From the NCBI GenBank assembly GCA_963662275.1, contig OY759316.1, positions 4,128,001-4,192,000 of the forward strand: a stretch of 64,000 nucleotides of DNA, read 5' to 3'. The stretch is from Candidatus Cloacimonadales bacterium (GTDB lineage: Bacteria; Cloacimonadota; Cloacimonadia; Cloacimonadales; DAONDQ01). Shown here piece after piece: positions 3,884 through 62,400 of the stretch (position 1 is the first letter of the stretch; each line of letters begins with the position of its first letter). The notes beneath the pieces were generated by a model. The model did no database searches, was not told the origin of the DNA, and worked only from the letters and a program-made list of their open reading frames with translations. The translations under genes were made by a program, and so were the position numbers.

Positions 3884-5744
3884 GAGACTGTTCATGAAGT
3901 TATTCATAATATTCAATAAGTTAGAAAGTAGCAAGTTGAAAAAAGTGGTCGAAACGGTCATAATTTAACATACCTTCCAGAATTGACAGATAAGCTCTGC
4001 TAAGGACACCAAATCACAAGTTAAGCTTTTTGACTAAAATTGAAAAACACGCGATTATAAGTAATGTTTCGAAGCCGTTTCTGACTAAATGTGTAGTTAA
4101 AATCATATAAAATAGTTCTTTACAAGTTTTTTGCTATAGCTTCAATGGCATTTGTTACCTGGTAACAAAAGGGAGGATATTATGACAAAAAAACACTCCA
4201 ATTCAAGAAGCGGTAAGTGTTAGTCATGAAAGTAACCAATACCATGTAAGTATTAACGTACCATTTTCATTCACTTTGCCTGAGACAACATCAAACCACA
4301 AGTTCTTAATAGCGTTTCTACGCTTATTAGTAGGAATAGGCGGAGACAACCTCCTTACACTTCAGCAAATAGCTGATCTGTTTAACTACGCAGACCGCAG
4401 GAATGTACATAATTTCTGGCAAGAGTTTGAGCAGCATGGTCATGATATCCTGGCATATTTAAGCCGGAAAGTTGACCTGCTGGAGTGTATTCCTCAGATC
4501 GAGAATTTTGTTATCAATAACCTGCTTTTACCTTTAAATGTCATGTATCAGGAGTTCATCAGCCATCATGATTTTAAAATGTCCTATACCACTTTCTGCA
4601 AATATGCTTCTCAGGTCAATTCTCTGTCTGTAGTTAAGCAAGCTCAGAAGCTTCTTCTGAAAAAGACAGTAGGCGGTGATGCTGTACATCTGCTGAAACT
4701 GCTTGCCGGTCAGCAGAATACACCTGTTATCTGTGACAGACTCCTGGAACAAATGAAGACTGCTAAAGGCAATACATCCCATAGAACCGCCGATGCAAAG
4801 CCGTTCCATAGTCTGGAACGCAAGAACCTGTGTCTGCTGGTACATTACCTGGTTGGAAGCGGTATGAACTTCGAGACGATAGCTTTGCTGCTCAACACCT
4901 GTAAAGCTACAGTCTCAAATCTCTGGCATGAAATCGCTGACCTGCAGAGCCTGATTCTGAACTCAATCGGTAAGTGGAGCGGAAAGATCAGCATTGATGA
5001 GAAATATGTGAAGATCAAAGGTATTCCGTACTATGTCATCAGTATTGTTGATTTTGTGACTCACATCCCTCTGTTTTGTGAGTTGTATCCTGACACAAAG
5101 AAAGAATCATTCGAAGCATGTTTCAGAACCTTCAGACAGCTCTACAGGAAAGATCCAACCCTGATTGTCAGTGATGGCAGTAAATCGTTAGCAGTTGCAA
5201 GAAAAACAGTGTTTCCAAAAGTCCATTACCAACTCTGTAAGTTCCATAAGATACGAAATCTCTTCAAAAGAATCAGTCAATGTCATCTCCCTGAAGACAG
5301 GGACAAGTTCTTTAAGAAGAGGATTATGAAAGCTTTCCGAAGAGAAACGGCGGGCGGAAGGAAAAAGGGTATCGCAAGCCTGACAGCTATTACTCCCCCA
5401 ACCGCCGCCGAATACATCAAAAGCAATATCATTAGTGATTGGAGACACCTCAGCAAAGGTTTGACTTCCAATGTCTCTGAACGCTGGAACCGCAAAATCA
5501 AGAAGGTGACATCCGGTAGATTTGGACTAAAATCTGAAGAAACCACCCGCAACCTTGTGTTTTCGCTTTGGTTCAAAGAACTGGTCGATAAAGGTCAACC
5601 AATCATGCGTCAGGAATCACTTTTAGCAAGTTTAAATATCTCCCGCATATGTCAAGAAAATGTGGATTGGTCGCACTTAGACCACTTTTTCTCTGTCACT
5701 ACCAATAAGGCTGCGTAAAATGGAGGTTAATTTTGAACAGTCTC
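3884..5744 (+). mobile_element. Insertion sequence, 1861 bp, IS256/Mutator-like DDE
   Basis: Terminal inverted repeats GAGACTGTTCA (3884-3894) and TGAACAGTCTC (5734-5744); 8-bp target duplication TTGAAGCA at 3876-3883 and 5745-5752. Confidence 0.92.
4276..5718 (+). CDS. DDE transposase (true start probably ATG 4182 via an A7 frameshift)
   Basis: SIDEKYVK (D), VSDG (D), QLCKFHKIRN (CxxH of Mutator/IS256), TSNVSERWNRKIK (E); HTH-like segments in the N-terminal half. Confidence 0.88.
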   Translation: MPETTSNHKFLIAFLRLLVGIGGDNLLTLQQIADLFNYADRRNVHNFWQEFEQHGHDILAYLSRKVDLLECIPQIENFVINNLLLPLNVMYQEFISHHDFKMSYTTFCKYASQVNSLSVVKQAQKLLLKKTVGGDAVHLLKLLAGQQNTPVICDRLLEQMKTAKGNTSHRTADAKPFHSLERKNLCLLVHYLVGSGMNFETIALLLNTCKATVSNLWHEIADLQSLILNSIGKWSGKISIDEKYVKIKGIPYYVISIVDFVTHIPLFCELYPDTKKESFEACFRTFRQLYRKDPTLIVSDGSKSLAVARKTVFPKVHYQLCKFHKIRNLFKRISQCHLPEDRDKFFKKRIMKAFRRETAGGRKKGIASLTAITPPTAAEYIKSNIISDWRHLSKGLTSNVSERWNRKIKKVTSGRFGLKSEETTRNLVFSLWFKELVDKGQPIMRQESLLASLNISRICQENVDWSHLDHFFSVTTNKAA

Positions 5745-42632: not shown

Positions 42633-45600
42633 TTATTTAACAGCAATCACTCTGTAGAAGCGAAGGCCATAAGAATCTGCATCACCAGTGGCTTCATAGG
42701 TAGTTGCACCAGTAAATTCACCAGTAGTAAGTACAGAATAAGTACCATTTGGAGCATCTGCATATTCAACGATATAGCTGGTAGCACCAGTTACCGCAGC
42801 CCAAGTAAGGATAACGTTATTTCCGCTAACTTCAACGCCTACAGCGATTGGTGCAGAAGTTGAAATATCAGCAAGACTGCGTGGTACAAATTGGGAAGTT
42901 GTTGTATACTGCAGACAGATACCAGTGTAGTTTCTCGCATCGGTAGGTGTGGCAGTTGTGATATAATCAAGATCAGAATAGGCTGTGCGTATTAAGCCTG
43001 TTCCGGTCGGATCAGTGATCGTGATGTTTGCTCCACTTGTAAATGTGGTTACTAATGGATCGATTTCGACATTTTTAATGCGGATAAGCTGTGCCTGGTA
43101 TGTAGTATTTAAACCGGCAAGTGTCACATCGACTGGAGTGGGCACATAGCCTGATGTATTTGTAGCAGTACCGGCATCAGCAGTAGGTTTCAGTTCTATC
43201 ATACCGTAATAATTGGTTAATGTTCCAAGAATTCCGGTGATTCCATTACCAATAGAATAAGTGGTTGTCATTTTTGCAGGAGCTGCATCATAAATCTGAA
43301 TCGCTCCAGTTGCATCCTGGATATACTTGTTTTTTGATAAACTAGTAGTCCCAGTGGTTGACTGAAGTGTCAAAATGGCTTCACTTGTCAATCTGTAAAG
43401 TGTTGTACCGTCATTGGATAACCCGTTGTAAGCAGGTGCAGCCGCACGTAAAGCTGCGATGCTGGCAACATTGATGGGGAATGTATAAGTTGCAGTTGCA
43501 ACATCACTACTTGTCCAAGTTGCTCTATAGGCAATTGCTTTGATCGTAGTTGTCGAACTGACATTAATTGGTGTCCCTGTGTACAAGGTTCCAATCGTTT
43601 CTGTCGGTGAGGTTACACCATCAGTCGTATAACGTATAGACGAACTGGGTGTTAAGCAACTTAGTGTTACGTTTTCTGAGGCAGAATAATAAATACCTGG
43701 TGCCGGATCAAAGGTCGGTAAGGACACAATCGTGAGAGCACGTCCGGTGATTGAAACATCATCAATACCGAGACCCTGGACATAGGTGGTGGTAGTTCCG
43801 GTAACAACTGAATAGTTCCAGGCAAGATACAGTGCAGAAGATGCAGGTACCGTAACACCTAGTGTGCCGGATACAGGAATTGTGGCACCTGGAGCTGAGA
43901 CATAACCATAAGTGGTATCATCGGCAGCAGGCCAGGAGGCAAGGAAATCCGTTCCAGCATCGTTCCAGGATGTACCATTCAATGAATAGTACATTTGGAT
44001 TCTGCTACCAGCACTATTGATTCCCTTTCTATACTTTTCAGCATTGAAAGAAATGTCAAATGCGGTTATTGCAGAAGCACCAGTGTTCGTTAACATGGCA
44101 TATATATTGCCACTTTTAGTTGCACTACCGGATGAGACAAAACCTAAAGCACGGTCAGTTGCCGTAGCCGCGTCACCGGCACCATAGTTATATATGCCGT
44201 TTTGCGCAGAAGAACTCATCAGGTTACCCGCTCTTAATTCAGTAGCAGAAACAGCAGCGCTATACGTACCTACCGTACGGACAGTGGTGTTTTTATCCAC
44301 TTTCCAACCAGATCCTAGAGTCGCAATTGCAGCAACGCCAATGGCATTAAAGTTTTCAGTAATAGTAGAACCTACTTCAATATTCATTGGTGAACTGGTT
44401 CCTGTACCATAAACATTAAGGTTTGTCGTCACACTATTTGCAGTATGAGAGACAAGTCCGTCATTCGTTCCATAACCCAGGGGTTTGAACTGAACATATA
44501 GCAGACCATCATATGTAGGTGGGACTTTGAATGTAGAAACCCAAGGTCCGGTGGTAAGTTTAGATATTTCATAACCTGTTGGTGCAGTCACGGTAATACT
44601 GTCTGTTAAACTGGCTCCTGTGAGAGTATATGACTGGTAGGAAGAAGTTGTACCAGCAGGTGTGGAAAAAGTACGTGACGTTGGATTAACAGTAATGGTC
44701 GCTGCAGTTGTCGCTGTACCATATACTGGGAGATCAACTTCTGCTGCACCTCCTGCAACATTGGTAACAAGACGATTTTCGGTTCCAGGTGCGACAGGGT
44801 TGTAACGTACAGAAATCGCTTGTGTGCCGGGAGGAGTTACATCGACCGAATCAGCCCAAGTTGAAGATTCTGAATATTTCACTTGGTAATGTAGAGGAGC
44901 TTTAATCCGAATATCCGTTGTAAAAGTCCCTGTACTTGTTACTTCATAATCTTGTCCAGCCGAAGGTGTACCACTCGGTGTTGAGAAAGTCAATGAAGCT
45001 TTGTTGAGTTCAATCAAACCGGTAAAACTGGAAGGGTAAACATCGTTCCAGGCTGTACCTACTTTGATTGCATCAATAATACAAGGAGGTGTATTAGAAC
45101 CTTGACGCAAAAAGAATGCTGATAGAGTAGTTGCATCAGCACCGGCATCTGTACTTGTCAAAGTAGGAGCTGTCTCTGTTCCCGGTGTGGGAGGGTTGAT
45201 CCATAAATAAGCCACATCATTCGTTGTACTTGCAACGTATGTATATTTCAAAATGAAAAGATAGGTTGTCCCTGTGTCATAGGTTGCAGTTGTATAGACA
45301 GCAGTGCCTGTATATTTAGATAATCCAACCGTATATTTGTTCGTTAATGTTGCATCTCTCTTAAAAAAGATTCTTCCATAGAATGTTGAAGATCCAGTTC
45401 CAAGACTAATTTCATAATCCGCATTTGCATTGGGAAAACTGGATACATTGATAAGAAAAGCAGAATAGACACTACCTGATGTAACTGCTGTAAATGTTTT
45501 GTTGATATCTTGACCGGTTGAAGTGGTTGTTTGGCATTGAAGACCAACACCGGTTGCTGAATAATTTGCGTAAGTCAAGTTACCAGTTGTTGACAACCAA

Positions 45601-56449: not shown

Positions 56450-58681
56450 TTATTTTACAATAACCATTTTCTTGGTTGTATTGACACTAGCTGAGCTGAG
56501 TTTGTAGAAATAAATTCCACTGCCACAGACAGCATTACGATCATCACGACCATTCCACTGGATGTTGTGTGCGCCTTCTGAACGGACAAAGGTCTTTACG
56601 GTCTGACCAAGTACGTTGTAGATGGTAAGTGTGGCGTTTTCGCCTCTCTTGACATTCAAACCAATGTTGGTATTGGTATTAACATTGAAAGGATTTGGAT
56701 AAGCATTTTTCAGTTCTGTTGCAACTGGTACTTGTGGAACTGGTGTTTGACCATTCGTTGTTGTAACCATGACAGAATTACTGAAATTGCTTTGTCCACT
56801 GAGAGGAACCATCTCTAACCAATAGTAATATGTAGTTTGAGGATCAACTGAATTATCCACAAAACTATAGTTATGAGTTGAAGATGAGTTTGTTCCAGCG
56901 ATAATTTGGAAGTTTACTTTAACTGCATTGTCAACGTTGCTGTTACTTGAACGATAGACATTGAAACCAAGGTTATCAGTTTCTGATTCGGTCGTCCACT
57001 GCAGATTGACAAACATTTGTGCTGTAGCAACAGCATTGAATGATGACAATTCAACAGGCAGATCCAAGTCTGTGCCCATGATGAGTTCTAATACTCCGCC
57101 TGGAGCTTTTGCAGCCCACGTTGGGATTGGACCTATTGTCAAGGCACCGGCTAAATAACCTGCAGCCGTAAATGGTGCATCACCAAGGACAAAGTCATAA
57201 GGTGGATATTCAACTGTGCCACCATTGAAGGCATAACCAGGAGTAGGAAGGTTAACCATCGGATGATCAGTTGGATAATAACCATCATCGACTCCACCCC
57301 AGTGAATTGCTACATACTTGTAACCGAGAATTGGATCATAATTCAAGACAATTGTTGCGCCATTAAGCTCATTTTGATCTACGACTTCAGCTTTATAAAC
57401 TGCAACAACATTACGATAGCCGTTATAGAATCCTTTTGCTGGTGGAACATATTTTGTGAAAACAATCACACCACCAGTTGATGCTGGTCCTGCGGTACCT
57501 GATAATGTAACGCCACCAGTTGCAGGAAGTGTAAAGCCTGAACCTGCGGTTGCACCAATAACACCAACAGCAGCGGCAACGCCACCACCGGTTGTATTTG
57601 CTGGATTCGTATATACGAAGTTATGTCCACCACTTACAGCGGCTGTAAATTCAAATGGAGCTGGAGTAACCTGGGTAGTAAGATCCATAACTTTGTAAGT
57701 ATGTGAAGTACCGACATTACATGTGAAATGATAAGGTGCTGAATGACCTGTGGTTGTATAAGTTTCACCAATTAATTCATAGATCAGCACGCCGGGGATA
57801 TTGGATGTGACGTAAGCATCATAGGTGGTTGGAAGATCATCTTTCGTAGTGAAATCAAAGACATCTGACCATTCACCATCAGCTCTTGAAGTAGTTGCAG
57901 CACGCTGCATTGAAGGAGCTTTTCCCTTTCCAGGTGCCGTTGTACTTGCCTGTACTTGCCAATAGTAATGAGTTGAAGGTAATGCAGAAATTCCATAAGC
58001 TGTACCGACTACTGCAGCTTGATTATGAATCTGCGCAGTTGCTAATGCACCGGAGGATATTGCATATCTTACATTATAATAAGTAGGTGTTACGATACCA
58101 GCACCGAGAGTATAATCCCAATCCAAGTTAAGAGCACCGAAATCAACTCCTGTCTGATGTAGTGTTGGTGCTGTTAGTGTTGGTACACCAAATACATCTG
58201 GAGCTGGAGTCGGAGGTACTGTTACAGAATAACCGGAATGGATTAAGTCATTATAAATAGCTGCTGTACCTGATGGGACAACAAAATCCCACTGTGAAAA
58301 AGCACGACTTACACCTTTTGTGCCAATATAGGTCAATTTGCAACGAATAATAGTTGTTGCAGGAATTGCTGTAGGCATAAAAGCACTAAATTGAACATAA
58401 ACACGAGGACCGGCTCCAGCTAAACTGAAAACACGTAAACTGGAAATAGGGGTAGGTGTTGACCCACCAGTTGACAATGTTCTGACATAACCGTCAGCGG
58501 AAGTCGTGACTTCCAACAGATAGTTTGGACTCGTCGTTGTTGTTAAAGTGTTAGTTACATAAGTTGTAATCAGGTTTGGAGCTTGGCAAACGATTTCCTG
58601 ATAATAACTTCTTGTGGTTGCATTCAGTGATACGCCTAAAATTAGCGTAAACATTAATACTAAGAATACTAATTTTTTCAT
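56450..58681 (-). CDS. Secreted protein with FN3-like, LPVELSSF and CTD domains
   Basis: Signal peptide; LPVELSSF; YPNPF...KKMVIVK. Confidence 0.85.
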   Translation of the reverse strand: MKKLVFLVLMFTLILGVSLNATTRSYYQEIVCQAPNLITTYVTNTLTTTTSPNYLLEVTTSADGYVRTLSTGGSTPTPISSLRVFSLAGAGPRVYVQFSAFMPTAIPATTIIRCKLTYIGTKGVSRAFSQWDFVVPSGTAAIYNDLIHSGYSVTVPPTPAPDVFGVPTLTAPTLHQTGVDFGALNLDWDYTLGAGIVTPTYYNVRYAISSGALATAQIHNQAAVVGTAYGISALPSTHYYWQVQASTTAPGKGKAPSMQRAATTSRADGEWSDVFDFTTKDDLPTTYDAYVTSNIPGVLIYELIGETYTTTGHSAPYHFTCNVGTSHTYKVMDLTTQVTPAPFEFTAAVSGGHNFVYTNPANTTGGGVAAAVGVIGATAGSGFTLPATGGVTLSGTAGPASTGGVIVFTKYVPPAKGFYNGYRNVVAVYKAEVVDQNELNGATIVLNYDPILGYKYVAIHWGGVDDGYYPTDHPMVNLPTPGYAFNGGTVEYPPYDFVLGDAPFTAAGYLAGALTIGPIPTWAAKAPGGVLELIMGTDLDLPVELSSFNAVATAQMFVNLQWTTESETDNLGFNVYRSSNSNVDNAVKVNFQIIAGTNSSSTHNYSFVDNSVDPQTTYYYWLEMVPLSGQSNFSNSVMVTTTNGQTPVPQVPVATELKNAYPNPFNVNTNTNIGLNVKRGENATLTIYNVLGQTVKTFVRSEGAHNIQWNGRDDRNAVCGSGIYFYKLSSASVNTTKKMVIVK

Positions 58682-58696
58682 ATTTATCCTCCTACA

Positions 58697-59365
58697 TTAT
58701 TTTGTACGGGTTGTACGTGGTGTATGTACTTTGCCGCTGACAATGCCTTTCGCTGAAGGCCAGGTAGCTGCTGTTGCTGCATTAACCATGAATGCTGCAC
58801 CGATGGATGTTGCAGTTTCAGTATCAGACCAACCGAAAACTGAATCATAATCAACTGCATACCAATCTTGAACGTCATTCAGCCATTGATTAACAGTTGT
58901 TACATTACCGGTAAAAGCGTCACCAAATGCACTGATGGTTGCCAAGTCAGAACGATTCAATGGAACCATGACCAAATTCAAACCTTCATACATATTATAT
59001 GAAGGATCTGATGGTAATGGACCCATACTGTAAGCATCAAAAATAGCATTTGAATTTACATAGACAACTTCACCTGGTGAAATGGTAAATACATCTGACC
59101 AGCCAAAGACTTCATCATAATCAATTGCATACCAGTCTTGAATATCAGGCAGCCATTTGTTGACAGTCGAAATATTGCCACCCATCGCGGTACTGAAATC
59201 TTCAGCAGTAGCGAATCCTGGTGCCATTGGAAAGGCGATCAGATTCAACCCTTCTACACATGGATATTTCACATACCCAACTACAGCGCTGGGAGTGGAC
59301 TCAGCGGCTAACAGAAAACTGCTGATAGCCACGAGCATTAACAGAGGGAGTAACACTTTCTTCAT
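58697..59365 (-). CDS. Small secreted protein with two tandem repeats
   Basis: Signal peptide, then AESTPSAVVGY; two EGLNL...P...QDWYA.DYD.VFGWSD repeats; AAGGAGG RBS. Confidence 0.85.
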   Translation of the reverse strand: MKKVLLPLLMLVAISSFLLAAESTPSAVVGYVKYPCVEGLNLIAFPMAPGFATAEDFSTAMGGNISTVNKWLPDIQDWYAIDYDEVFGWSDVFTISPGEVVYVNSNAIFDAYSMGPLPSDPSYNMYEGLNLVMVPLNRSDLATISAFGDAFTGNVTTVNQWLNDVQDWYAVDYDSVFGWSDTETATSIGAAFMVNAATAATWPSAKGIVSGKVHTPRTTRTK

Positions 59366-59436
59366 GTAACCTCCTTAAGGTTAATCATAATTTTTTGTAG
59401 TCTCTTTTTTACAGACCTAGTTACAGATTTCATTGA

Positions 59437-59459
59437 GCGGGGATAAATTAAATCCCCGC
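59437..59459 (-). terminator. Hairpin between the giant adhesin gene and the 222-aa gene
   Basis: GCGGGGAT-loop-ATCCCCGC without a U-tract. Confidence 0.4.
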
Positions 59460-59474
59460 CCAAAATTTAGCAAG

Positions 59475-62400
59475 TTATTTTTTTATCCGCGCCCCTGTTG
59501 TGTTATAGCGAGGATGGATTGAAGCTGGTCTCAGAGCAGTAAGAGTCTGGTTTCTATTTACTTTTTTACTGCCATTGATCGCTGTTACTTTGTAGAACAA
59601 CATTCCGTTGGATGTTGTGTCTAAGTACGAATTCGTCAACACCGCTGTTACAAATGTCCAGAGACTATCAGCAGCATACGGATCCGCAGAAGTGTAGATG
59701 TTATAACCAGTTGCATTTGTGCTTGCCGCCCAATTCAATTGAACTCCAGTTGGCACAACTGTAGCTACGAGGCTATCAGGTACAGTAGGAATTACTGGAG
59801 CAGCCAAACCAGGTAAACCAACATCATCGATATATAACCCGTACATATCTGCAGAATAATATTGGAATGCCAGGCAGACCGTATAACCATCGTAATCAGA
59901 AAGATCAATTTCATATCCTACATATGTCTCGCTATCAAAAGCAGGAACATCTAACAGAGTGACTGTGAAGTCAGCAGGGAGAGTTCCCGTAGTGGAAAGC
60001 ATTACCTTGAAGGATTCAGGATAACTTGCACTCTCTACTCTTGCATAGAATGATATTTTATCACCAGTTACGATATCAAATATGGGTGCAATTAACCAGT
60101 CGTCATTAGCTGATTCATATGGAATACCAGCGGTTTTCACGCCTGAATGTGCATTCGAAGAGTAAATGCCCCAAGTGTTACCATCACCATCAAAGTCATC
60201 TACATACCATCCGGTATATGGTGACACTTCCCAATCCTGGGTTGTGATTCCGGCATTGGATTCGATGGCTACAACTTTATCAGCACCACCATTGGAGTGG
60301 ATCGTCACTGTTTCTGCAAATAAACCCTGTGTATCGGGTTCATAAACAACTTCAACAATGAGAGTAGCTGGTGAAGCTTGAGTGAATGTTGCCGGACCTG
60401 TAATACGATCAGAGGAATATTCAATTGTTCCGGTCAGTACGCCAGGACCTATATTGCTGATTGTGAATGTGTCAGATGTACCGCTGCCTATTGGAGTAAC
60501 AGGCAGGATAATTTTAGTTTTATTAATTGAAATCTCGGGAGTAGTTGGTACAGGATTAATCAGGATGTCATCAAGACCTGAACCATAAGCACTATATGAT
60601 CCATCTGTCTTATAGCGCCAGCGAAGTATTCCAGTTCCTGAATAAGTTGCCAATGATATTGTACTCTGATGAAATGCGGATTCAGAAGATGCAGCAGACA
60701 AAGTATCAAGAGGTGCCCAAGAAGAACCACCGTTCATTGAAATTTCAACAAAAGTAGAATCATGAGCTATGATCTTTGCATCCATATCATTATTCTTCCA
60801 CCACCAGCTTAAGATCATTGGAGCTGATAAATCGATTGGCGGAGTAGTTAAGATCTTGGTTCCAGCCGGGGTATATACAGCGCGTGCACTGTAAGTACCT
60901 GTATTGGGTTCGCTTGAATGCGACCATTGATCTGCAACCCAGCCAGCAGGCGGGAATATGGAATCTTCAAATCCCTGAGTATAGGGGAAGTCCTTGATTG
61001 TAGGATCATCCATCGTCGTGAACTGCCAGATAGGGCAGGTATACAGAAGAGTAGCATCACCATTCAAGTTGTAAGGAATGATCTGCCAATAATAACGCTG
61101 TCCGTATACTAAATCACCGACATCAGGGACAAACGTCGTTACATTATACAAGTCTCTTGCTTCGCAAACGTCTGTCGGTGGATTATCGGTACCTAAAGAA
61201 AGTTTGTAACCGGTAGGTCCGCCGCCGCCTGAAGCCCACTGGAAAGTAGGTAACAGAGAGACACCAGTAGCCATACTATCAGGAAGAATCATGACTGCTG
61301 GATTTGGAGGTGTGGGAGGATCCCAGTGTTCTACATGAATCGTATAATCTTCTGTTTCACCCCAACTATAGGTTCCGACTGCCACGGTGTTTACTTCCGT
61401 GCCACTTTCTCTCAGTACAACACGCAGACGTGTAGATCCTGTATCAGCAAGCGCTGGTACTTCGATAGAGCCATTAATTTGCATGTGTGTTGAAGATGTT
61501 TGTCCAGTCATAACCTGTTCATCAGGTAGATCGAAGGTTCCATTCTGGTTGAAGTCAATAAAGACTTTTCCCCAGCATGGGTAAAAAGTATCTTCATTGA
61601 TCTGATGAATTTGGGTAGGATAACTATGTCCCTGCTGTACATGGATTGTAATCGCTGTGTAATCCGTGTACATATTTACGGATGCAACATTAGGTATAGA
61701 ATCAGGATGTACTGCCGGATTGGTGACATCAGCCATAATGAACTGCCCGATATCATCGTCTAAAGGACTTGTTGCAGTGGATGCGCCATAAGCCCAGCCC
61801 GTGCCTGTTGTGAATCTCCAGGTTGAGCTGCCTGTGGCATCACCATAGGTATTCTTTGCCACAACTTTCCAGAGATACATCGTATTAGCAGTCATCGTTG
61901 GAGGTGTCCAGGTCAAAGGAGTGGTCACGTTTGCATTGGCTGTGCCCGGTAAGGTTTGACCGAAGTACACATCATAAGAGGTTGCTGTCGCAACAGCACC
62001 CCAGGTTACCGAGGCATTTCTGCCAACATTGGCTGCACTATCTGCTGGTGTATGTGTTGTGACTATTGGAGGAACACCGACTGTATAGAAATTCCAAGGT
62101 GTGCAGCCGGTAGCATGACCGACCAAGTTGTAAGGAACAACTTTCCAGTAGTAATGTCCGTTCAGTGCAAGTCCTGCGGGCATATATTTGTTCACAAGAC
62201 CGACATCAACACTATCCACCATATTTGTAGGAGGATTATTGGTTCCTAAATAGATCAGGTAACCGGTTGGATCAGGACCCGAAGAATCTTTGATCCAGCT
62301 AAGGCTATCTGTAAGAGCAATCGAAGTTGCCCCATTCGTAGGATGAGTTACATAAGCAGGCAGTGGAGCTGTAGGAATCTTTTCGACTCTCACATCATCC

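Follow-up and report, generated by a model that had tools for sequence, protein, structure and literature searches.

How do large secreted proteins that carry no T9SS CTD gain the cell surface and stay there? We know of no outer-membrane route for such CTD-less parts. The question is raised by a 64,000-nucleotide stretch of DNA, analysed as a whole and here called the window, in which two CTD-less proteins share the minus strand with a small secreted protein and its CTD-bearing neighbor; every window feature given below with its coordinates lies on that strand. The source genome (G000), of Cloacimonadota type, is one closed contig of 4.38 Mb, 99.97% complete, and it encodes T9SS machinery, with SprA_N at 66.7 bits (cut-off 27) and the PorU sortase at 582 bits (cut-off 420).

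A sequence-only reading of this DNA had claimed that the two CTD-less proteins end in FN3-like domains lacking the last strand, that the mature N-terminus of a neighboring 222-aa protein resembles the missing strand, and that the CTD-less proteins dock on this neighbor, which would itself be linked to the CTD protein. The present analysis favors a split FN3 through which CTD-less proteins dock, by donor-strand complementation, on an adaptor that is in turn tied to a partner anchored by the T9SS, and we place the probability of this reading at about 0.6. Computation shows that the adaptor segment is homologous to strand G, that the acceptors are truncated, and that natural fusions and a conserved gene order exist, and it predicts an interface with a high score. 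The 222-aa protein would be the free-standing donor half of the docking system, and the many large secreted proteins that end in an FN3 with strands A–F and no strand G would be its acceptors, P0004 being the firm case in the window and P0002 a possible one.

The candidate adaptor and its operon partner

The adaptor, P0001 (58697..59365), is a 222-aa ORF that starts MKKVLLPLLMLVAISSFLLA, continues with AESTPSAVVGYVKY, and then consists of two internal repeats and a basic tail. It has its own ribosome-binding site (AAGGAGG) and signal peptide, for which reason a readthrough or frameshift joining P0002 and P0001 was ruled out. The signal peptide (residues 1–20, 59306..59365) is modeled as a helix over residues 2–20 and contains neither a Cys nor a lipobox, and its MKK..LPLL start is conserved among 30 homologues, in which the mean column identity of the signal peptide is 0.68. 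Cleavage probably follows residue 20, which would place the donor at the N-terminus of the mature protein.

The donor segment itself, AESTPSAVVGYVKY, spans residues 21–34 (59264..59305) and is homologous to the end of the FG loop and strand G of an FN3 domain. It falls in a near-invariant region directly after the signal peptide, with the consensus VES.PS.VVGYVKY. Across the same 30 homologues, the 15 residues from 20 to 34 have the highest conservation of the whole protein (0.91 versus 0.53 in the repeats), and A20, E22, S23, S26, V29, G30, Y31, V32, K33, and Y34 are invariant in all 30. Behind a signal peptide, the motif occurs a single time in the genome.

The two repeats claimed for the 222-aa protein are visible in its sequence and again as two like halves of its structural model. 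Repeat 1 (residues 35–118, 59012..59263) is modeled at a pLDDT of 86–96, and repeat 2 (residues 119–203, 58757..59011) closes with a conserved W-P. The basic tail (residues 204–222, 58700..58756) has a pLDDT near 50 and a column identity of 0.30; it is poorly conserved, yet rich in K, R, S, and T in 30 of 30 homologues. The adaptor model has an overall pLDDT of 85, falling to a mean of 61 over residues 21–30. Residues 21–28 are unstructured in it, with no secondary structure ahead of residue 29, and residues 29–36 form a hairpin with residues 39–45. As modeled, the peptide is therefore not buried in its own protein, its first part being unstructured at low confidence and its second paired with residues 39–45, and the contacts of the predicted complex described below suggest that the other edge of residues 29–36 is open. 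Removal of the signal peptide would expose residues 21–34, of which 21–28 would serve as a free N-terminal extension, and residues 29–36 would form the outer edge strand of repeat 1.

The adaptor has no family in Pfam or NCBIfam. A Foldseek search of its body against the PDB gave no match at E ≤ 0.001, and the best VIA match, the RCK-type domain 6nd0_A (Z 5.3, rmsd 3.3, 71 residues), lies below the level at which that tool is informative. Among solved chains, the best match by sequence has an E of 0.93.

P0001 ends 15 bp ahead of the start of P0003 (56450..58681, start at 58681), the spacing that had been claimed for the adaptor and the CTD gene. P0003 is a 743-aa protein in which an N-domain and a middle part precede an FN3-like domain and, at the C-terminus, a T9SS type A CTD. 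The N-domain covers residues 20–157 (58211–58624; N-domain HMM, E 7e-44). The CTD covers residues 661–741 (56459–56701) and exceeds the cut-offs of both Pfam and NCBIfam, scoring 34.2 bits against 27 for Por_Secre_tail (PF18962) and 43.9 bits against 23 for TIGR04183.

The gene order is conserved: an N-domain protein with a signal peptide is encoded directly downstream of the adaptor in 19 of the 19 relatives' loci read that have a stand-alone adaptor, and in one fused locus (L014) an N-domain and CTD gene follows the fusion. Together with single chains that join adaptor, N-domain, and CTD, this order supports the claimed link between the adaptor and the CTD protein. The full order of cargo, adaptor, and CTD protein is found in G000, G001, G018, and G040. 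At least 10 loci read have no acceptor gene immediately upstream of the adaptor, and the adjacent cargoes (P0002 and those of G001, G018, and G040) carry long tails. In the window, a terminator-like match lies directly 3′ of the P0002 stop codon, ahead of the adaptor. It covers part of a G+C-rich hairpin (59455..59474) whose tail is not clearly T-rich and which may act as a partial terminator.

FN3 domains that stop at strand F

A regular expression modeled on the motif that had been described for the ends of complete FN3 domains, Y.VTA.Y...GES.[PFA][ST]N.[IV], returned five instances in the window. P0004 (42633..45767) departs from this form. Its C-terminal FN3 (42636..42875) ends ...RFYRVIAVK*, two residues beyond strand F, and a full-FN3 HMM aligns to this terminal domain only as far as position 88 of 109; the seventh strand, G, is absent from the chain by both the sequence end and the HMM. 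P0002 (59475.., about 1930 aa, with a signal peptide) has a C-terminal FN3-like domain and tail at 59478..59834, strands A–F occupying approximately 59580–59834 and the basic tail 59478–59579. It reads ...FYKVTAIN, followed by a K/R-rich tail of about 32–34 residues (GSKKVNRNQTLTA) whose weak, ungapped alignment to the full-FN3 HMM extends into the columns of strand G and ends at position 102 of 109. P0002 may thus form a weak strand G from its own tail, and the neighboring cargo may, judging by this alignment, not be a true acceptor. The claim of a missing last strand accordingly stands firm for P0004 and is uncertain for P0002. Neither protein matches Pfam fn3 at E ≤ 0.01, and the CTD families of Pfam and NCBIfam have no match in P0001, P0002, or P0004.

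The ending of P0004 is widespread in the genome, where at least 61 ORFs, P0004 included, have a C-terminal FN3 whose last strand is F. Between 1 and 44 residues follow the strand, 9 or fewer in 41 of the 61. These ORFs have a median length of 1105 aa, 55 of them have a signal-peptide-like start according to a heuristic, and K or R is the last residue in 37 of them (background 0.32). There is no overlap between the 61 and the 266 ORFs with a C-terminal T9SS CTD. The endings are not a product of chance, because at least 61 ORFs end alike and the motif behind a signal peptide is unique in the genome. A profile of 21 of the terminal domains matches the Fn3-like 3mpc_A (E 1.3e-10) only to residue 75 of 103, and it also matches 5g56_A and titin FN3s, a likeness to strands A–F of the fold. 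A circular permutation, with an extra strand before A in place of G, was considered as well and dropped because the conserved block of the 21 aligned domains begins at the usual L..P.N of strand A.

The natural fusions foreseen by the sequence-only reading do exist. Relatives of the adaptor were classed in the best 150 of 1118 representative clusters, giving 56 stand-alone, 26 N-fused, 17 C-extended, 18 both, 24 partial, and 9 other; the 56 stand-alone relatives have the same start as P0001. Of 44 N-fused relatives, a regular expression identifies 33 in which an FN3 strand F precedes the motif by no more than 32 residues; inspection by eye gives about 35. One such fusion, P0034, reads ...RMFYRVIAVSGIVESVPSEVVGYVKYPC... 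and is also given as ...MFYRVIAVSGIVESVPSEVVGYVKY; another is encoded in the same genome as the window (G000:2424532-2426718). The resemblance noted between the mature adaptor N-terminus and the missing strand is borne out by its position, for in the fused relatives the segment comes directly after strand F. Moreover, the A–F part of the fused FN3s prefers an HMM of terminal G-less domains to one of internal FN3s in 34 of 35 cases, both HMMs being built from this genome.

On the other side of the adaptor body, 21 of 35 C-extended relatives have a T9SS CTD, and the N-domain HMM matches the stretch right behind the repeats in 9 of the 35. Single chains such as P0120, P0121, P0159, and P0178 contain cargo, FN3, motif, repeats, N-domain, and CTD in this order, and so unite in one protein the products of three neighboring genes of the window. 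The repeat/N-domain unit and a G-less FN3 end also occur together in one protein, in a 2926-aa ORF beside a paralogous adaptor and in P0148, P0158, and P0166.

Whether the two families co-occur was assessed across genomes with a crude test. A codon pattern for the acceptor end, FY[RK..]V.A, exceeds its control 2.27-fold in 34 adaptor-positive and 1.29-fold in 27 adaptor-negative genomes, fold figures that are uncorrected for kinship among the genomes. They were obtained with a wider pattern, the narrow one (FY[RK..]V.A, one or two codons, stop) being too tight outside G000; it gave 131 occurrences versus 39 in the control for adaptor-positive genomes and 74 versus 70 for adaptor-negative ones. 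The expected association is seen as an enrichment but is only partial, with clear exceptions. The pattern excess persists in seven adaptor-negative genomes, and G010 has a real ...FYKVTAIR* end, yet no adaptor. The motif ES..S..VG[YF] is not above control in G010, and in five adaptor-negative, pattern-positive genomes the donor motif likewise gave nothing above control.

Predicted strand docking and competing explanations

An AF2 model of one fusion (pLDDT 90.5, pTM 0.84) has the segment in the position of strand G. Solved whole FN3 domains align to model residues 13 to 98–104, motif included; the best match is 5z06_B (Z 12.9, rmsd 1.8, 83 residues), and residues 2–91 of 7jgu_A align to model residues 13–102. 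For the separate chains, ESMFold2 was run three times on the last 81 residues of P0004 with adaptor residues 21–222, along with three controls. The ipSAE between domain and adaptor was 0.91 in all three runs versus 0.00 for the best of the three controls. The ipSAE mark is reached by 116 of 157 solved complexes and by 2 of 215 mismatched pairs, counts that apply only roughly here because the alignments supplied were our own. At least 93% of contacts are shared among the runs, with a partner pLDDT of at least 88.

In the predicted complex, adaptor residues 24–33 lie antiparallel to strand F of P0004, and the interface consists of residues 21–33. The contacts are F85 with V29, L83 with Y31–K33, R87 with S26–V28, and I89 with T24–S26, and strand A (residues 17–28) and core residues (33, 35, and W37) of the domain touch the adaptor as well. 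An acceptor without its last strand and an N-terminal donor on a second secreted protein are thereby both found in silico, and the complex of the P0004 terminal domain with the mature adaptor that the sequence-only reading called for is predicted, its peptide antiparallel to strand F. However, the complex amounts to one domain of a very well-known fold split in two, which the model may reassemble because it has learned the FN3 fold, so the score is evidence of fit between the pieces and not of binding.

Fusions, complex score, and free segment support, in silico, the claimed docking of CTD-less proteins on the 222-aa adaptor, and the pieces probably bind in the cell. The donor segment would insert antiparallel to strand F and beside strand A of a G-less FN3 and complete the sandwich, which amounts to donor-strand complementation by β-sheet augmentation. 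The two-repeat body of the adaptor would in turn be tied to the N-domain of P0003, the repeats presumably binding this domain directly. Since P0003 carries a T9SS CTD, the adaptor–P0003 pair could act as a detachable export or anchor cassette for CTD-less proteins. Docking would take place either in the periplasm, with co-export through the T9SS, or at the surface.

The G-less end may be explained otherwise, as an autonomous C-terminal module: either a domain that is stable with six strands, or a signal for sorting or anchoring that another machine reads by β-augmentation. The adaptor would then be a mere fission product of a fused ancestor, its conserved N-terminus serving its own fold or another partner. 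We consider this unlikely, though it draws on several findings, namely the G-less ends in genomes where neither adaptor nor donor motif is detectable (G010 and the seven adaptor-negative genomes with an excess), the 61 acceptors to one donor, the K or R that ends 37 of the 61, and the mutual exclusion of G-less end and CTD, which would befit alternative sorting tags. Against it stands the fact that strand F and some of the core of an FN3 are exposed when strand G is missing. Nor does an autonomous module explain why, in a stand-alone secreted protein, conservation peaks in the free N-terminal segment, why this segment is unstructured in the monomer model, or why F–G pairing in trans is predicted at 0.91 versus 0.00.

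One free, single-copy donor for at least 61 acceptors could also mean that the adaptor works transiently in the periplasm, as a chaperone or escort that lends its strand as PapD does and hands its clients on, and not as a permanent surface anchor. A signal peptide without a CTD or lipobox would suit such a role, as would the lack of any match in the genome to a PapD_N or usher family that could do the job. Yet the single-chain relatives join the repeats permanently to a cargo FN3 and a CTD cassette, and the tight operon with the CTD protein (15 bp) and the adaptor, N-domain, and CTD fusions suggest a lasting link, and we consider an escort improbable. Close to refuted is the view that decay, or an error of assembly or annotation, produced the truncated ends and the small ORF, for example from a broken fused gene. 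The order of P0002 and P0001 does mirror the fused form, but the genome is a single closed and nearly complete contig, the adaptor has a ribosome-binding site and signal peptide of its own, a stand-alone form with the same start is found in 56 of the best 150 representative clusters, and 61 independent ORFs are truncated at the same strand.

Beyond split FN3 docking itself, it is possible, if rather doubtful, that one donor strand provides a T9SS sorting signal in trans, about 60 CTD-less giants hitching onto a CTD partner and being co-exported folded or captured at the surface; proteins with both units could then build branched, cellulosome-like networks through the split FN3.

Comparison with known systems

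Donor-strand complementation assembles chaperone-usher and type V pili and is known from pilus polymerization. If split FN3 docking is real, its new use is to dock many unrelated large proteins on a common anchor, and it would explain surface access and retention without a T9SS signal for a fifth of the large secreted repertoire (61 G-less versus 266 CTD ORFs). It would also define a new C-terminal tag, an FN3 stopping at strand F, and an unnamed adaptor family of 1118 representative clusters that has no Pfam or NCBIfam model, and the natural split-FN3 pair would be a candidate tool for protein ligation or display. In the literature, searched by titles and the starts of abstracts, no split FN3, G-less C-terminal FN3 tag, or trans-supplied T9SS signal is described.

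The closest likeness is to the chaperone-usher pili (Pap/Fim), in which the acceptor is an Ig-like sandwich without its last (G) strand and another secreted protein donates its N-terminal extension to pair with strand F. Here, by contrast, giant multidomain proteins, not pilins, provide the acceptor as their C-terminal domain, there is no sign of a homopolymer, and the carrier of the donor is tied to a T9SS substrate. The usher family PF00577 and the chaperone family PapD_N (PF00345) have 0 matches in the 99.97% complete G000, with positive E. coli controls. The type V pili of Bacteroidota (FimA/Mfa1) likewise assemble by strand complementation in a lineage that uses the T9SS. Type V pilins are made as lipoprotein precursors, cut by a protease, and donate C-terminal strands, whereas in the adaptor the donor strand is N-terminal and a Cys lipobox is lacking.

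With T9SS type A cargo, which bears a CTD and is anchored by PorU, the system shares the CTD of P0003 and of the single-chain relatives and the presence of SprA_N and PorU; P0001, P0002, and P0004 differ in having no CTD, which is proposed to act in trans. Cohesin–dockerin cellulosomes resemble it in that a single small C-terminal docking module is common to many different large proteins and plugs into a surface-tied scaffold, but they rely on two complete folds binding each other, whereas here one fold is split between the partners. For export, a parallel is offered by Tat "hitchhiker" co-export (PaoABC), in which signal-less proteins travel bound to a signal-bearing partner (PMC4273604). The likeness lies in carriage of signal-less proteins by a partner, and the difference in the translocon and the membrane that would be involved.

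Locus layout and the adaptor family

On the minus strand of the window, three genes are arranged head to tail; the window (G000:C1:4128001-4192000) comes from a closed genome (G000; 4.38 Mb, 99.97% complete), and its proteins have relatives labeled Cloacimonetes. The cargo neighbor P0002 (59475.., ~1930 aa in the genome) carries a signal peptide; the adaptor P0001 (58697..59365) is a 222-aa ORF with its own copy of the AAGGAGG ribosome-binding site; and P0003 (56450..58681, 743 aa) starts 15 bp past the end of P0001 and carries a C-terminal sorting domain (CTD) of T9SS type A. The 15-bp spacing and the CTD had been described in the sequence-only reading. A G+C-rich hairpin lies between P0002 and P0001. 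The most economical account of these genes is a split FN3 domain. The N-terminal extension and edge strand of the adaptor would complete the C-terminal FN3 domains of CTD-less proteins that stop at strand F, termed G-less, while the adaptor and P0003 would together represent the detached T9SS cassette of single-chain relatives. Elsewhere in the window, a transposase-like ORF of 510 aa (4186-5718, plus strand) belongs to a highly multiplied insertion sequence, since near-identical C-terminal ends are found at 39 places in the genome.

The adaptor is ordered as signal peptide, AESTPSAVVGYVKY, two repeats, and basic tail, and has no family match in Pfam or NCBIfam. A word-indexed search yields 30 related proteins of 209-230 aa, in which A20, E22, S23, S26, V29, G30, Y31, V32, K33, and Y34 are invariant. 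Residues 20-34 are the most conserved 15-residue stretch, with a mean column identity of 0.91, whereas the repeats average 0.53 and the tail 0.30; this stretch holds the donor segment (residues 21-34), which is likened to FN3 strand G. Searching 1.84 billion representatives with a profile gives 1118 relatives at E <= 0.001, of which 362 reach <= 1e-10 and 91 reach <= 1e-30. The AF2 model of P0001 (pLDDT 85, pTM 0.73) has two like halves, with residues 21-28 of low confidence and devoid of secondary structure and strand 29-36 paired with 39-45. The repeats have no convincing match among solved folds. The basic tails of the adaptors (58700-58756, minus strand, and those of homologues; ...SRASK, ...TPRTTRTK) slightly resemble the start of the P0003 N-terminal domain, or N-domain (..PR.YYQK..), and could be left over from the split point of a single-chain ancestor.

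Acceptor domains and the predicted complex

Complete FN3 ends of the form Y.VTA.Y...GES.[PFA][ST]N.[IV] occur five times in the window, and P0004 (42633..45767) was correctly noted to lack the motif, stopping at ...RFYRVIAVK, two residues past strand F. An HMM seeded with 39 ends finds 127 domains in 86 ORFs of G000, with a bimodal distribution: 63 end <=45 residues from the stop, 44 of these <=10, and all others lie inside their proteins. The latter possess an ordinary strand G of the YYRVRAVN..GTS.NSN.ITV.T type. The 61 terminal cases that were parsed carry 1-44 residues after FY[RKY]V.A, and their number is a minimum because a few ends found by regex, such as a 3839-aa ORF ending ...MFYRVTAY, fall outside the HMM list. 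These 61 ORFs have a median length of 1105 aa, begin like signal peptides in 55 cases (by heuristic), end in K or R in 37 (background 0.32), and share no member with the 266 ORFs bearing a C-terminal T9SS-type CTD. A profile made from 21 terminal domains reaches only residue 75 of 103 in its match to 3mpc_A, a solved Fn3-like chain (E 1.3e-10), and a full-FN3 HMM stops at positions 87-90 of 109 on short-tailed ends.

The predicted complex pairs the last 81 residues of P0004 (21 paralogous ends aligned) with adaptor residues 21-222 (30 homologues) in ESMFold2. The ipSAE is 0.91 in each of three runs versus 0.00 for the best of three controls, a score that carries the caveat that split-fold halves are prone to pass because they resemble solved structures. 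Of 157 solved complexes, 116 attain this mark, as do 2 of 215 mismatched pairs, a rough guide only, as custom alignments were used. The runs share >=93% of contacts, with a partner pLDDT of >=88. The donor forms an F-G hairpin with P0004 (P0004 F85 to adaptor V29, L83 to Y31-K33, R87 to S26-V28, and I89 to T24-S26) and is also touched by strand A (residues 17-28) and by V33, L35, and W37 of the core, while adaptor residues 110-117, 136-139, and 187-189 contact the FN3. The cargo C-terminus sits beside the adaptor N-terminus, which places the break in the FG loop, where the basic last residue of the cargo could be a partner for invariant E22. In the model the pieces fit together as an FN3, and this fit is not proof of binding in the cell.

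Fusions and the T9SS partner

Natural fusions of FN3 end and donor motif, proposed earlier as a check on docking, do exist. In G000, a 728-aa frame (2424532-2426718, plus strand) reads ...YVYYRVTTSSRSRVESAPSETVSIAI... and continues into the repeats; the related genome G017 encodes two fused proteins, ...RRYYRVASYIGELESELSEVVGYSRYEC... and ...KFYRVTSFIGDNESEQSEVVGYFRSD...; and the relative P0034 has ...RMFYRVIAVSGIVESVPSEVVGYVKYPC.... Among the best 150 of the 1118 representative relatives, 56 are stand-alone, 26 N-fused only, 17 C-extended only, 18 both N-fused and C-extended, 24 partial, and 9 other. By a regex that, judged by eye, missed four and wrongly counted two, 33 of the 44 N-fused proteins have an F-strand pattern immediately before the motif; in the remainder this position is taken by an N-domain or a different domain. 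The A-F part of the fusion FN3s scores higher with the terminal G-less HMM of G000 than with the internal-FN3 HMM in 34 of 35 cases, a comparison that may favor the former because the two HMMs are unlike in depth and diversity. In the AF2 model of a G017 fusion (pLDDT 90.5, pTM 0.84), whole solved FN3 domains align to residues 13 to 98-104 and so cover the motif at 89-103; the top alignments are to 5z06_B (Z 12.9, rmsd 1.8 over 83 residues) and to 7jgu_A, whose residues 2-91 match 13-102 of the model. As modeled in cis, the donor segment fills the strand-G place, and its VGY..Y strand doubles as the opening strand of repeat 1.

Gene order and fusions link the adaptor to a T9SS partner. A signal-peptide protein is directly downstream in all 19 relatives' loci read with a stand-alone adaptor, and most of these proteins begin with a PR.YYQKVV-type N-domain. 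An N-domain HMM (10 seeds) matches P0003 (E 7e-44) and, in 9 of 35 C-extended relatives, the sequence immediately following the repeats. A CTD is present in 10 of 17 C-extended and 11 of 18 N-fused and C-extended relatives; truncation or divergence may account for the 14 that lack it. The fusion at locus L014 is followed by an N-domain and CTD gene, and P0035 joins adaptor, N-domain-like part, and CTD in one chain. The G000 fusion is followed by a 1709-aa ORF (2426703-2431832, plus strand) ending in a T9SS-type CTD, so a T9SS-linked partner follows the repeats at all three G000 loci. Single chains such as P0120, P0121, P0159, P0160, P0176, and P0178 run cargo-FN3-motif-repeats-N-domain-CTD, which by sequence is P0002, P0001, and P0003 in one protein.

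Other arrangements of these modules also occur. A paralogous pair in G000 consists of a 341-aa protein (G000:C1:697694-698719, minus strand; L002 1462-2487) with N-domain, two repeats, basic tail, and no donor motif, and, a few bases on, a 2926-aa ORF (G000:C1:688956-697736, minus strand) with an N-domain start and a G-less FN3-like end plus basic tail. This large protein could in turn use the single donor for docking, a hint of chained assemblies. The relatives P0148, P0158, P0166, and P0149 place a C-terminal G-less FN3 (e.g., ...KKFYRVTAVY*) rather than a CTD after the repeats and N-domain-like part, thus holding both module kinds in one protein. At L043 (G040:C2:3224000-3236000), two tandem copies of a pair of adaptor-like and N-domain/CTD genes lie downstream of a cargo gene whose product has an FN3 end and a basic tail. 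The motif AVESSPSATVGY is retained in these adaptors on a different body, and the profile matches positions 1-47 only.

Distribution, points against, and known systems

Co-occurrence of the two families, as the sequence-only reading expected, is borne out in part. The adaptor profile matches in 34 of 61 related genomes, where the FY[RK..]V.A codon pattern occurs 443 times versus 195 for the control (median excess 7.5), compared with 229 versus 177 (median excess 2) in the 27 adaptor-negative genomes (Mann-Whitney p 0.0017, ignoring kinship). However, seven adaptor-negative genomes have an excess of >=6. G010 encodes a 930-aa protein ending ...LKFYKVTAIR* and has neither an adaptor nor a donor motif above control.

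Other points also count against the split FN3. P0002 does run ...FYKVTAIN into a basic stretch of 32 residues, as claimed, but its missing last strand is uncertain: the tail aligns weakly and without gaps to the full-FN3 HMM up to position 102, so P0002 may have its own, poor strand G. Adjacent cargo genes in G000, G001, G018, and G040 have long tails, at least 10 loci have no acceptor gene directly upstream of the adaptor, and G000 has one free donor versus at least 61 acceptors.

Among known systems, titles and abstract openings in the literature gave no description of such an arrangement. The genome has no usher and no PapD_N, and it encodes SprA_N and the PorU sortase, both above cut-offs. 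The cargo part of P0121 (2004 aa) is a Peptidase_C25 (gingipain-family) protease with propeptide, showing the kind of enzymes that use the cassette.
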